Shown: piece by piece, positions 26,704 through 28,425 of the stretch | Layout: the number at the start of each line of letters is the position of its first letter | How positions within the stretch are numbered: the stretch's first letter is position 1 | DNA from: an uncultured archaeon | Lineage (GTDB): Archaea; Asgardarchaeota; Jordiarchaeia; Jordiarchaeales; Jordiarchaeaceae | Assembly: GCA_964510585.1 (NCBI GenBank) | Contig: CAZECW010000004.1 | Coordinates: forward strand, 36,751 to 68,750 | Length of the DNA stretch: 32,000 bases | Reading direction: 5' to 3' | The notes under the pieces: model-generated | Seen by the model: the letters and a program-made list of their open reading frames with translations, nothing else | Told to the model about the DNA's origin: nothing | The model's database searches: none | Program-made: the position numbers and the translations under genes

Positions 26704-28425
26704 ATGACACAACCAAAACAAAAATGGAAAAAAGAATTCGACAGCATTGTTGTGTGTTGTTTTGTTGGCGACGTTGACGGAGACGGAAAAAACGAAATAA
26801 TAACAGGAAACAAGGACGGAACACTTATGGTCTTAAGCGGAGAAGGAGAACAAAAATGGAAAAAAAAATTCGACGACAGTGTTTTGTGCTGTTTTGTTGG
26901 CGACGTTGACGGAGACGGAAAAAACGAAATAATAACAGGAAGCGAGGACAGTACACTTAGGGTCTTCAGCGGAGAAGGAGAAAAAAAATGGAAAAAAGTA
27001 TTCGGCGGCAGTGTTGTGTGCTGTTTTGTTGGTGATGTTGACGGAGACGGAAAAAACGAAGTAGTAGCAGGAAGCGGGGACAGGACACTTAGGGTCTTCA
27101 GCGGAGAAGGAGAACAAAAATGGGAAAAAGTATTCTTGGACGTTGTTGAGTGTTGTTCTGTTGGCGACGTTGACGGAGACGGAAAAAACGAAATAATAAT
27201 ATATGGCGGGGACGGAAGACTTAGGGTTTTCAGCAGAGATGGAGAACAAAAATGGAAAAAAAAATTAGGCGGTGTTCGGTGTTGTTTTGTTGGCGACGTT
27301 GACGGAGACGGAAAAAACGAAATAATAACAGGAAGCGAGGACAGTACACTTAGGGTCTTCAGCGGAGATGGAGAACAAAAATGGAAAAAAGTATTCGGCG
27401 GCGAGGTCTGGTTTTGTTCTGTTGGTGATGTTGACGGAGACGGAAAAAACGAAGTAGTAGCAGGAAGCAAGGACGGAACACTTATGGTCTTAAGCGGAGA
27501 TGGAGAACAAAAATGGAAAAAGGTATTCGGCGGCGAGGTCTGGTTTTGTTCTGTTGGCGACGTTGACCAAGACGGAAAAAACGAAATAATAACAGGAAAC
27601 AGAGACAAGGCACTTATGGTATTAAGCGGAGATGGAGAACAAAAATGGAAAAAAGAATTCGACAGCGAGGTTTTGTGTTGTGTTGTTGGCGACGTTGACG
27701 GAGACGGAAAAAACGAAATAATAACAGGAAACAAGGACGGAAAACTTATGGTCTTAAGCGGAGAGGGAAAACTAAAATGGCAAAAAGAATTCGTGGACGA
27801 TGTTCGGTTTTGTTTTGTTGGCGACGTTGACGGAGACGGAAAAAACGAAATAATAATAGGAAACGAGGACGGAAAACTTAGGGTTTTCAGCGGAGAGGGA
27901 GAACTAAAATTGAAAAAAGTATTCTTCGACGTTGTTGAGTGTTGTTCTGTTGGCGACGTTGACGGAGACGGAAAAAACGAAATAATAATAGGAAACAGGG
28001 ATCAGACACTTAGGGTATTCAGCAGAGAAGGAGAAAAAAAATGGAAAAAAGAATTCGGCGACGTTGTTTTGTGTTGTTCTGTTGGCGACGTTGACGGAGA
28101 CGGAAAAAACGAAATAATAATAGGAAACGGGAACCAACTTATGGTTTTAAGCGGAGATGGAGAACAAAAATGGGAAGAAGTATTCTACAACAGTGTTTTG
28201 TGTTGTTTTGTTGATGATGTTGACGGAGACGGAAAAAACGAAGTAGTAGCAGGAAGCGAGGATGGAACACTTATAGTCTTCAGCGGAGAGGGAAAACTAA
28301 AATGGCAAAAAGAATTCGGCGGCGAGGTTCGGTGTTGTTTTGTTGGTGATGCTGACGGAGACGGAAAAAACGAGGTGGTAGCAGGAAGCAGTTTCGGGAC
28401 GCTTGAGGTTTTTGTTTTTCCCTAG
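26704..28425 (+). CDS. FG-GAP/VCBS-type Ca-binding beta-propeller repeat protein, no signal peptide
   Basis: 13 DxDxDG motifs (GDVDGDGKNE), 44-aa period; N-terminal KWKKEF strand fits velcro closure; ATG 26704 behind GAGGA. Confidence 0.88.
   Translation: MTQPKQKWKKEFDSIVVCCFVGDVDGDGKNEIITGNKDGTLMVLSGEGEQKWKKKFDDSVLCCFVGDVDGDGKNEIITGSEDSTLRVFSGEGEKKWKKVFGGSVVCCFVGDVDGDGKNEVVAGSGDRTLRVFSGEGEQKWEKVFLDVVECCSVGDVDGDGKNEIIIYGGDGRLRVFSRDGEQKWKKKLGGVRCCFVGDVDGDGKNEIITGSEDSTLRVFSGDGEQKWKKVFGGEVWFCSVGDVDGDGKNEVVAGSKDGTLMVLSGDGEQKWKKVFGGEVWFCSVGDVDQDGKNEIITGNRDKALMVLSGDGEQKWKKEFDSEVLCCVVGDVDGDGKNEIITGNKDGKLMVLSGEGKLKWQKEFVDDVRFCFVGDVDGDGKNEIIIGNEDGKLRVFSGEGELKLKKVFFDVVECCSVGDVDGDGKNEIIIGNRDQTLRVFSREGEKKWKKEFGDVVLCCSVGDVDGDGKNEIIIGNGNQLMVLSGDGEQKWEEVFYNSVLCCFVDDVDGDGKNEVVAGSEDGTLIVFSGEGKLKWQKEFGGEVRCCFVGDADGDGKNEVVAGSSFGTLEVFVFP
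26761..28425 (+). repeat. Tandem array of 132-bp coding repeats (12 full, two of them 129 bp, plus one partial)
   Basis: Unit starts at 26761 and 28339 (12x132 minus 6); core gacggagacggaaaaaacgaa nearly invariant. Confidence 0.95.

Follow-up and report, generated by a model that had tools for sequence, protein, structure and literature searches.

The propeller gene and its locus

The window, the whole stretch of 32,000 nucleotides that was analysed, belongs to a Jordarchaeia/Freyarchaeota genome (96% complete) of a hot-spring Asgard archaeon. It harbours a gene for a repeat protein, followed by a gene remnant and two insertion sequences. The relevant features are as follows.

26563..26703, + strand: in-frame extension upstream of the gene, starting from TTG, purine-rich and Lys/Arg-rich
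26704..28425, + strand: coding sequence of the repeat protein, 573 amino acids plus stop (open reading frame call; Pfam FG-GAP_3 2.9e-51, FG-GAP 1.1e-50)
26704..26760, + strand: N-terminal head of 19 amino acids, comprising strand D (Q-K-W-K-K-E-F) and the beginning of strand A
26761..28422, + strand: array of 13 blade units, each with the cation-loop motif at codons 4-12 and variable codons 17-21 and 38-42
Starts of units 1-7: 26761, 26893, 27025, 27157, 27286, 27418, 27550
Starts of units 8-13: 27682, 27814, 27946, 28078, 28207, 28339
27010..27021, + strand: patch at codons 40-43 of unit 2, at which strain B (L020) differs in 8 of 12 nucleotides (S-V-V-C to E-V-R-F)
28434..28810, + strand: frameshifted C-terminal remnant (about 127 amino acids) of a giant open reading frame that has 3087 amino acids in a complete genome of the same genus
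29191..30168, - strand: truncated IS5/IS1182-type DDE transposase, 325 amino acids here and 527 amino acids in its intact form in L019
30279..31973, + strand: Tn5-like IS4 transposase, frameshifted and spread over three frames, which seems to have inserted into the IS5-type element; end of the contig

The open reading frame, which ends at 28425 on the + strand, has two possible starts, TTG 26563 and ATG 26704. ATG 26704 is the likely start codon; relatives in sister genomes likewise have a methionine 8-10 residues ahead of the first Q-K-W strand. The stretch upstream of the ATG is probably a leader and not protein, and equivalent stretches in relatives are K-rich with the methionine coming later. 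The protein scores 172.4 bits with the FG-GAP_3 profile (cut-off 26.9) and 169.2 bits with FG-GAP (cut-off 22.1) and thus falls into the FG-GAP/VCBS superfamily; the profile search matched propeller families alone and gave no non-propeller domain in the protein. TRF reports a period of 132 nt with 12.6 copies and 84% matches. If the units are delimited by anchoring on the D-x-D-x-D-G-K-N-E motif, ten of them comprise 44 codons, units 4 and 11 have 43 and the truncated last unit has 28. The array spans residue 5 to the C-terminus, with no flanking non-repetitive blades. The original prediction had stated that a signal peptide is missing, and the N-terminus is indeed hydrophilic by inspection.

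Neighbouring genes code for a HAD hydrolase, a PfkB kinase, an isomerase and transposases. The remnant begins 9 nt past the stop codon of the propeller gene, which therefore abuts a rearrangement breakpoint, and the two insertion sequences beside it bear out the insertion-sequence-rich location that had been described. At the syntenic site of sister strains the gene is absent and the HAD gene is followed by a 23S rRNA gene. This absence, at a breakpoint beside two insertion sequences, is a point against the explanation that we favour below. Neither G003 nor the complete genome G005 yielded a close copy, which likewise counts against it. Paralogous arrays and partner STAND or effector genes had been envisaged; with the whole protein as query the gene turned out to be single copy in its own genome, and no STAND, effector or kinase gene adjoins it. 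The four related loci L004, L026, L027 and L050 share no recognisable neighbourhood genes, and Rfam gave no RNA family above threshold over the window. A HEAT-zinc gene lies across an insertion sequence from the propeller gene in the near-identical strain L019; it is convergent, not co-directional, with the propeller gene and is frameshifted in the window's own genome, a further point against the favoured explanation. Aligned over its entire length, the L019 HEAT-zinc protein shares 52% identity with the N-terminal part of P0002 (E 2e-115), a relative that combines a HEAT-zinc module with four blades.

Predicted fold and position of the variable loops

The alignment-based AlphaFold2 model consists of four-stranded blades throughout (mean pLDDT 89.7), and DSSP assigns four strands per unit in this model as well as in a single-sequence model. 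Residues 11-397 superpose on the designed nine-bladed propeller Cake9 with a Z score of 40.1 and an rmsd of 2.2 Å over 341 residues; WD40 proteins fit the fold equally well in the structural comparison. Each blade retains its hydrophobic core and has the cation-loop motif between its strands A and B. A single ring of 13 blades, as originally proposed, was not obtained: the alignment-based model has nine blades plus four, and the single-sequence model (pLDDT 74.7) matches no closed propeller with an rmsd better than 6.4 Å beyond arcs of 5-6 blades. In the kinase-fused relative L048, six blades, a linker and seven blades follow each other. The 19-residue head corresponds to the tail end of a blade unit and appears suited to ring closure against the C-terminal A-B-C blade; its strand (E5-11) is formed in the single-sequence model and disordered in the alignment-based one.

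The D-x-D-x-D-G motif is present in 13 of 13 units; in unit 7 the first G is replaced by Q and in unit 13 the V is replaced by A, so that the cation motif is unaltered in 11 blades and conservatively changed in two. Metal binding by the blades may be inferred from this motif. Codons 17-21 correspond to the B-C turn and codons 38-42 to the D-A connection (DSSP). The assumption that both variable loops lie on one face is in agreement with propeller topology and strand order, according to which the B-C turn and the D-A connection should share a face. This would be the face opposite to the invariant DxDxDG cation loops, a placement that follows from strand order rather than from coordinates. It is on this side that propellers usually bind their ligands.

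Homogenised blades, mosaic units and the integrity of the array

The median blade-to-blade identity amounts to 84% at the nucleotide level and to 70% at the amino acid level (the latter over the 12 full units). Scaffold codons had been reported to be invariant even at synonymous sites, and the 13 units indeed agree throughout in codons 6-11 (GAC GGA GAC GGA AAA AAC); 12 of them also have GAA at codon 12. Codon usage bias cannot explain this invariance because the local bias is too weak (GAC 37% for Asp, GGA 31% for Gly). The consensus blade of the sister species (G004) has synonymous differences at 11 of 32 conserved same-residue codons, and its C-D loop is one residue longer in every full-length unit. 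Scaffold synonymous sites are thus fixed within the array, yet the sister has a consensus of its own, which confirms the postulated concerted evolution of the repeats. The units are also mosaics, as had been suspected: the PHI test is significant (p = 0.0002-0.002), 383 of 595 site pairs are incompatible by the four-gamete test, and all five shared sub-unit blocks that had been named were found in the units named. TRF also gives a 393-nt period. A higher-order segmental duplication was dismissed all the same: exact repeats inside the array reach lengths of 86, 63 and 60 nt at most, and recent multi-unit duplications do not account for the common blocks.

The asserted concentration of variation in codons 17-21 and 38-42 is correct in so far as 39 of 80 distinct-state codon changes fall within these 10 of 44 codons (binomial p = 3e-7), but codons outside both loops (1, 13-15, 23, 25, 28, 31, 34, 36 and 43) vary too. 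The same two loops vary in the G004 array (18 of 26 changes, p = 4e-7). A bias to codon positions 1-2 was not substantiated, since the ratio of 28 vs 11 changes is not beyond the expected 2:1 (p = 0.31). The fixed third base of codon 42 was confirmed: only GTG, TTG, GAG, CGG and TGG occur, and the codon therefore always ends in G. The substitution spectrum is ordinary and consists chiefly of A<->G exchanges (38 of 80). DGR-type mutagenesis was considered and rejected; the changes are mainly A<->G and not adenine-specific, and no reverse transcriptase was found, RVT_1 having matches in 3 of the 14 control genomes but none in this genome (96% complete).

The clearest sign of short gene conversion is the patch in unit 2 that distinguishes strain B from the window. 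The states of this patch occur in other units, and an identical patch is present in a Logan unitig of run X2; beyond the patch, the arrays of the two strains differ by two K/Q swaps at codon 31. The patch is not an assembler chimera because it has too few bases in common with possible donors, a finding that also speaks against the view that short-read assembly of a shorter or different repeat locus produced the array of 13 units, or the mosaic pattern, as an artefact. We consider such an artefact very improbable. It could be suspected because the L019 assembly has five units only, exactly eight fewer and still in frame, because related arrays are mostly located at contig ends, and because the Logan pieces across the array, from three DNA runs, are just 75-151 nt long. 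However, most unit-specific unitigs of the three hot-spring metagenome runs match the window exactly, and their depth is similar to that of the unique flank (X1: 64-154x vs 83x; X2: 10.6-19.4x vs 19.1x). Unitigs that connect the two loops of one and the same unit (units 3, 7, 9, 10 and 11) are unchanged in up to three runs; their depth is near that of the single-copy flank, or about twice as high in the case of the block that is present twice. Independent assemblies repeat the unit order, namely units 1-5 in L020 and units 9-13 in L019. Both represent the same variant strain, with 7 flank SNPs in common; since L020 carries units 1-5 in window order, L019 is probably an assembler collapse, and a copy-number polymorphism on the basis of L019 was discarded.

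The dN/dS ratio at the variable codons, for which a value above 1 had been anticipated, is 1.24-1.26 and not significantly greater than 1 (p = 0.39). Taken over the entire unit, omega is about 1.0, and the loops have the higher density of synonymous changes as well (7 per 6.4 sites vs 9 per 20). With dN/dS around 1 across the blades, drift without constraint fits as well. The sister array gives an omega of 3.1 (p = 0.075), with 24 nonsynonymous vs 2 synonymous changes, and the pooled synonymous deficit in the loops has p = 0.06. One might regard the gene as recently amplified, without settled function and drifting to decay, with loops that tolerate change and scaffold copies that are young or homogenised. 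We find this reading unlikely. It would be compatible with omega and the density of synonymous changes, with the lack of a close copy in G003 and G005 and at the sister syntenic site, with the breakpoint beside a gene remnant and insertion sequences, and with the disruption of relatives (G004 has an in-frame TAA, L048 a frameshift); an early decay after amplification has been discussed for highly repetitive propellers (PMC9218822). The 573-codon frame is, however, unbroken in two strains, the cation motif is intact or conservatively changed in every blade, the second species varies in the same loops with almost no synonymous change, and the blade family is maintained across Jordarchaeia and in multidomain kinase fusions.

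Relatives, known systems and possible function

The same blades are found in relatives in 2 to 13 copies, often disrupted, and the family is present across Jordarchaeia. P0001 combines five blades with a kinase, and L048 adds a PCI-like domain and a kinase to its six and seven blades; at L052 a two-blade open reading frame is flanked by a HEAT gene on one side and a WD40 gene on the other. The kinase fusions of close relatives are Ser/Thr kinases, and the HEAT module carries a zinc ribbon. Distant homologues (about 31% identity at 98% coverage) are fused to AAA_22/nSTAND1-type, i.e. STAND-type, ATPases.

The protein is one of the known 'highly repetitive beta-propellers', here of the FG-GAP/VCBS lineage; the term applies to a median identity of consecutive blades above 60% (PMC9218822), and the present protein has 70% at the amino acid level. 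Proteins of this class have homogenised blades in variable number, with FG-GAP/alpha-integrin types in archaea and bacteria, and result from recent amplification of one blade; many are stand-alone and many contain stops or frameshifts (PMC9218822). In the literature searched we found no paper that treats Asgard archaea and FG-GAP together. The type example WRAP of Nostoc (Npun_R6612, PDB 2YMU, which is among the Foldseek matches) has near-identical blades as well, but belongs to the WD40 lineage and carries a STAND ATPase, whereas the present protein is of the FG-GAP/VCBS type, has no further domain and comes from an Asgard archaeon. Integrin alpha FG-GAP and bacterial VCBS propellers have comparable four-stranded blades of about 44-60 residues with the D-x-D-x-D-G hairpin between the first two strands, and bind their ligand on the face opposite the cation hairpins (PMC8023676). 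They are, however, extracellular and have seven diverged blades with metal in some blades only; the present protein has 13 near-identical blades, the motif in all of them and no export signal. Other secreted or membrane-anchored FG-GAP/PQQ-like proteins of Asgard archaea (L005-L008) are similar in unit length at 35-40% identity, but have hydrophobic N- and C-terminal segments, Ig-like or dockerin-like parts and more diverged blades, and their strand A is Ser-rich where the present protein has a Cys-Cys pair. The cytosolic proteins BBS2, BBS7, BBS9 and ITFG2 share the FG-GAP-like motif; the Pfam profiles BBS2_Mid, Beta-prop_BBS7, PHTB1_N and Itfg2 score, and 6vbu_2, a chain of a BBSome subunit, is among the structural matches with a Z score of 21.3. 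Orthology to BBSome, KICSTOR or ITFG2 proteins was rejected: the BBS2_Mid match covers positions 4-30 of 108, the part with the shared motif only, the best Itfg2 stretch corresponds to profile positions 16-105 of 330, and no other BBSome domain is present.

The similarity to fungal HET-E, HET-D and NWD proteins comprises homogenised blades, few variable positions on the ligand face and exchange of repeats (PMC1805685, PMC2873952). Unlike these proteins, the present one, which belongs to another propeller lineage, has a NACHT or HET effector domain neither within it nor beside it, and its omega of 1.24 (p = 0.39) gives no significant sign of positive selection. We know of no allorecognition phenotype in archaea. 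An immune or non-self sensor, an archaeal analogue of HET-E/NWD or of the cyanobacterial WRAP whose positively selected loops trigger a separate NTPase, kinase or effector, appears unlikely to us. Concerted evolution with variation on two top-face loops in two species, the exchange of a loop patch between strains, the 24 nonsynonymous vs 2 synonymous changes of the sister array, the disrupted relatives as a suggestion of quick turnover, the distant homologues with nSTAND1-type ATPases and the insertion-sequence-rich location would all suit such a sensor; the lack of an adjoining STAND, effector or kinase gene and of a second array in the genome, the fusion of the closest relatives to kinases or HEAT modules instead of STAND ATPases, the omega value of the window array and the absence of a conserved neighbourhood among the four related loci argue against it. 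A related and equally tentative thought is that the array serves as the exchangeable recognition surface of a Jordarchaeia-specific surveillance or signalling system, located in the cytoplasm. Micro gene conversion between blades would then re-assort the top-face loops, selection would keep them diverse, and the signal would go to separately encoded partners of the kinds that are fused to these blades elsewhere (Ser/Thr kinase, HEAT-zinc module). If true, this would be an FG-GAP-based, split NLR-like receptor in the archaeal lineage closest to eukaryotes.

The explanation that we favour, with a probability of roughly 60%, is an array of amplified and homogenised FG-GAP blades that forms a cytoplasmic multivalent binding platform with recombination-driven diversity. 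A single blade of 44 residues would have been recently amplified to 13 copies in a stand-alone cytoplasmic protein. Homologous recombination within the array, by unequal crossing-over and short-tract gene conversion, keeps the blades alike, synonymous sites included, and gives rise to the species-specific consensus and to mosaic units; where blades stay different, it is chiefly at the B-C turn and the D-A connection. The protein is probably a cytoplasmic binding platform; it may present many sites to a protein or other ligand in a signalling or recognition pathway, and the copying of patches from blade to blade together with gain and loss of blades may alter its surface over evolutionary time. 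Diversification would then be a by-product of tandem-repeat recombination that is filtered by selection, and not the work of a dedicated mutator. The self-diversifying sensor or binder of the original prediction is thus supported in part. Concerted evolution, mosaic units and the focus on two loops are borne out, and the strain-specific patch and the STAND-type fusions of distant relatives agree with it; significant positive selection, adjoining partner genes and signs of a dedicated machinery were not found, and the exact match of most unit-specific unitigs to the window does not favour it either.

The locus alone demonstrates neither a new diversification mechanism nor an immune function. 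If our explanation is true, it illustrates cleanly how beta-propellers pass in nature through the cycle 'amplify, homogenise, differentiate', here in an Asgard archaeon and within the FG-GAP/VCBS lineage, which has mostly been studied in secreted proteins. It would then provide three testable points: a blade family whose copy number ranges from 2 to 13 among close relatives, a directly observed conversion patch of loop size that separates two co-occurring strains, and the fusions to Ser/Thr kinases and a HEAT-zinc module, which point to cytoplasmic protein-interaction networks in Asgard archaea.

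Gene, locus and support for the array

The plus strand forms a single open frame from 26563 to 28425. The ATG at 26704 is likely the start of the propeller gene, giving a product of 573 aa, because relatives in sister genomes begin with a Met 8-10 residues ahead of the first Q-K-W strand. Pfam finds FG-GAP_3 (2.9e-51) and FG-GAP (1.1e-50) in this protein, whose N-terminus is hydrophilic and has no hydrophobic segment. Strong scores of BBS2_Mid, BBS7, PTHB1 and Itfg2 were rejected, since they arise where the motif-bearing portion of these profiles is matched over and over (best BBS2_Mid stretch 4-30 of 108). 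TRF describes a tandem repeat with a period of 132 nt, 12.6 copies and 84% matches, and a second period of 393 nt; anchoring on the motif D-x-D-x-D-G-K-N-E yields 13 units (blades), ten of 44 codons, two of 43 (units 4 and 11) and a last one shortened to 28; ahead of the first unit stands a head of 19 residues, which corresponds to a unit's tail. The 373-codon ORF opposite the array (26613-27734, minus strand), a complementary frame free of stops with a low-complexity S/P/T/F-rich translation, is a by-product of the purine-rich repeat and not to be annotated as a gene.

The window is the final 32 kb of contig C4 of a genome of 3.78 Mb (96% complete, 41.7% GC), in which no second copy of the propeller gene was found. 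Nearby housekeeping proteins have identical or near-identical counterparts in MAGs that carry the label Candidatus Jordarchaeaceae, Jordarchaeum or Freyarchaeota, and the runs holding the stretch are hot-spring metagenomes. The gene has the following surroundings:

Upstream beyond the spacer, strand opposite to the propeller gene: HAD hydrolase, PfkB kinase and MtnA-like isomerase
25470-26560: C/A-rich spacer of ~1.1 kb between the HAD gene (minus) and the propeller gene (plus), no credible ORF
28434-28810: giant-ORF remnant, ~127 C-terminal codons, frameshifted, beginning 9 nt past the propeller stop
Within 29191-31973, downstream: IS5/IS1182-type transposase, truncated (325 of 527 codons)
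Within 29191-31973, beside the former: Tn5-like IS4 transposase, frameshifted, spread across three frames and cut off by the contig end

On the plus strand the spacer reaches a GC skew of -0.61 and an AT skew of +0.71 and carries short tandem repeats of 14 and 25 nt at 26250-26319; a similar C/A-rich stretch lies ahead of the HAD gene of a sister strain (L009 7433-7917). The giant ORF is intact at 3087 aa, with no Pfam domain above cut-off, in G005, a complete genome of the same genus. A longer homologous piece (38% identity, one in-frame TAG) is present on contig C103 of the window's own genome. The insertion sequences at 29191-31973 are apparently nested. Unlike in the window, the HAD gene of sister strains (L009 2980-6890; also L010 and L011) is followed by a 23S rRNA gene, which contains a LAGLIDADG homing-endonuclease ORF (L009 5205-5792); no propeller follows the HAD gene at that site, and a related array ends another contig in one sister-strain assembly. 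Given the giant-ORF remnant and the insertion sequences beside it and the different synteny of sister strains, the propeller gene sits at a rearrangement breakpoint within a variable region.

Unit-specific stretches of the array are matched exactly by Logan unitigs, short assembled pieces from three runs of three studies, some of which join loop 1 to loop 2 inside units 3, 7, 9, 10 and 11; their depth is about that of the unique flank and about twofold for a block present twice. An independent assembly of a variant strain, strain B (L020), holds units 1-5 in the order of the window. Another assembly of that strain (L019) holds units 9-13 and has exactly eight units fewer, in frame. This shortfall is better explained by collapse during assembly than by a deletion allele, because L020, with the same seven flank SNPs, has units 1-5. 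Support for the array consists of short pieces and assemblies; the total of 13 units is the assembled count, and the unit order is backed independently for units 1-5 and 9-13, not for 6-8.

Constant scaffold, variable loops and mosaic units

The original prediction described near-invariant scaffold codons and changes concentrated at unit codons 17-21 (loop 1) and 38-42 (loop 2), an observation that is confirmed. Codons 6-11 are identical in 13/13 units and several others show at most one variant, a uniformity that the rather even local codon usage cannot explain. Counting distinct codon states per column via a minimum spanning tree, 39 of 80 changes fall into the ten loop codons (p=3e-7), and eleven other codons vary too, so that variation is concentrated at the two loops and not confined to them. 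Codon 42 encodes five residues, always with a G-ending codon, and all five shared blocks were found in the units named for them. The supposed bias towards codon positions 1-2 dissolved: 28 vs 11 changes equal chance expectation (p=0.31).

Diversifying selection at the loops is suggested but not shown. Pairwise Nei-Gojobori dN/dS is 0.92 for the whole unit, 1.26 for the ten loop codons and 0.78 for the rest; omega from state counts is 1.0, 1.24 (32 nonsynonymous, 7 synonymous; p=0.39) and 0.87, respectively, and synonymous changes are denser in the loops too. In the younger array of a sister species (G004), 24 changes are nonsynonymous and 2 synonymous (omega 3.1, p=0.075), and 18 of these 26 lie in the same two loops (p=4e-7). 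Pooling both arrays gives a loop synonymous deficit with p=0.06. Against the refuting condition set in the original prediction, dN/dS not above 1 at these sites, the values neither sink the prediction nor vindicate it.

The claimed concerted evolution is borne out by the same comparison. At its array locus (L004), G004 has at least 8 units of the same blade family with a consensus of their own, and the C-D loop is one residue longer in all full-length units. Synonymous differences from the window array occur at 11 of 32 consensus codons for the same residue, codons that are nearly invariant inside each array. Blade identity is 83% within G004 and 69% within the window array vs 64% between them. 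The G004 array (contig C32, 780-2066) has an in-frame TAA after the seventh unit, with one more unit in frame beyond it; the stop reflects a nonsense mutation of recent date or an error of assembly.

Within the window array, 383 of 595 informative-site pairs fail the four-gamete test and the PHI statistic lies below 5000 site permutations (p=0.0002-0.002). The longest exact internal repeat is 86 nt; the shared blocks are therefore smaller than a unit. Comparing 660 nt of the array between strain B and the window reveals, apart from two K/Q swaps at codon 31, a single dense patch in unit 2: within the 12 nt of codons 40-43, 8 positions are changed, so that S-V-V-C becomes E-V-R-F. The patch, which recurs in a run X2 unitig, matches unit 12 at all but one base and partly coincides with unit 8; by its sequence it would represent a conversion-like event between strains. 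Nothing points to a dedicated mutator: no reverse transcriptase was found, and the substitution spectrum is ordinary (48 transitions vs 32 transversions; A<->G changes predominate in this purine-rich gene).

Predicted structure

AlphaFold2 with a 60-sequence alignment (mean pLDDT 89.7, pTM 0.68, confidence lower near residues 370-450) predicts four strands in every unit, arranged along the unit codons as follows:

~41-3: strand A
A-B loop: filled by the cation motif
12-17: strand B
18-20: B-C turn
21-25: strand C
26-30: C-D loop
31-36: strand D
37-40: D-A connection

The two variable segments correspond to the B-C turn with its flanks and to the D-A connection together with the start of the innermost strand. 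Because, by established propeller topology, successive connections of a four-stranded meander alternate between the two propeller faces, the strand order would put both on the same face, with the 13 cation loops on the other. Integrins bind their ligand on the face away from the cation hairpins.

A single 13-bladed ring, as the term '13-blade propeller' would imply, is unsupported. In the alignment-based model, residues 11-397 align structurally with the nine-bladed design Cake9 (Z 40.1, rmsd 2.2 A, 341 residues), leaving four blades. For the single-sequence model (pLDDT 74.7), 5-6-blade arcs apart, the closest fit to a closed propeller has an rmsd of 6.4 A. In a kinase-fused relative (L048), a linker separates six blades from seven.

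Relatives and functional reading

The closest database relatives share the Cys-Cys FG-GAP blade in widely differing number and context:

P0001: five blades and a Ser/Thr kinase
L048 with P0120: six plus seven blades, PCI-like winged helix and kinase, reading frame broken
P0002: HEAT-zinc module and four blades
P0003, P0004: multi-pass membrane domains and seven blades
L052 (G004 contig C207, 2974-6264): two-blade ORF, co-directional between a HEAT-repeat gene and a 572-aa WD40-repeat gene

In L048 (4469-7545) the frame breaks after the eleventh blade, leaving two overlapping called ORFs, for which a frameshift, a sequencing error and programmed shifting are all conceivable. The two-blade ORF, with an annotated length of 69 aa, reaches 108 codons when read from its first ATG and is a candidate oligomerising mini-propeller. 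Several partial arrays lie at contig ends in Jordarchaeia and Freyarchaeota. At ~31% identity and 98% coverage follow long bacterial-type proteins in which HEAT repeats and AAA_22/nSTAND1 ATPases accompany such arrays.

In strain B, the gene across the insertion sequence from the propeller encodes a HEAT-zinc protein of 375 aa, which from end to end matches the non-propeller part of P0002 at 52% identity. The window's own genome carries this gene on contig C69 (1613-2738; L031, L032), 99% identical and split over two frames. G005 has three intact stand-alone paralogues; one of them adjoins the giant ORF, and two of the three lie beside small Ras-like GTPase genes. The P0002 fusion and the proximity of both genes make a functional link with the HEAT-zinc protein a possible lead, although their convergent orientation counts against it.

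Pereira and Lupas described ~10,000 'highly repetitive' propellers (median blade identity >60%) from all lineages and kingdoms, among them FG-GAP/alpha-integrin types in archaea, with continuous blade-number distributions, stand-alone forms and frequent stops or frameshifts; they also saw a possible connection to innate immunity or self-recognition (PMC9218822). With a median of 70% the window protein belongs here. The best functional analogy is fungal HET-E/NWD (PMC1805685, PMC2873952), with homogenised blades and variable surface positions; however, its defining STAND domain is absent from the window protein, and positive selection is unproven for the window array. No paper mentioning both Asgard and FG-GAP was found in the literature searched.

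Of the interpretation first put forward, concerted evolution, mosaic blades, predicted one-face loops and a loop-patch difference between strains stand, whereas 'self-diversifying sensor' exceeds the evidence. The propeller protein is probably a cytoplasmic multivalent binding platform, which would act in signalling or recognition pathways tied to kinases or HEAT proteins. The interest of the locus lies mainly in the Asgard host, in a cytoplasmic blade family linked to kinases and HEAT repeats, and in the prospect of following blade turnover with long reads.
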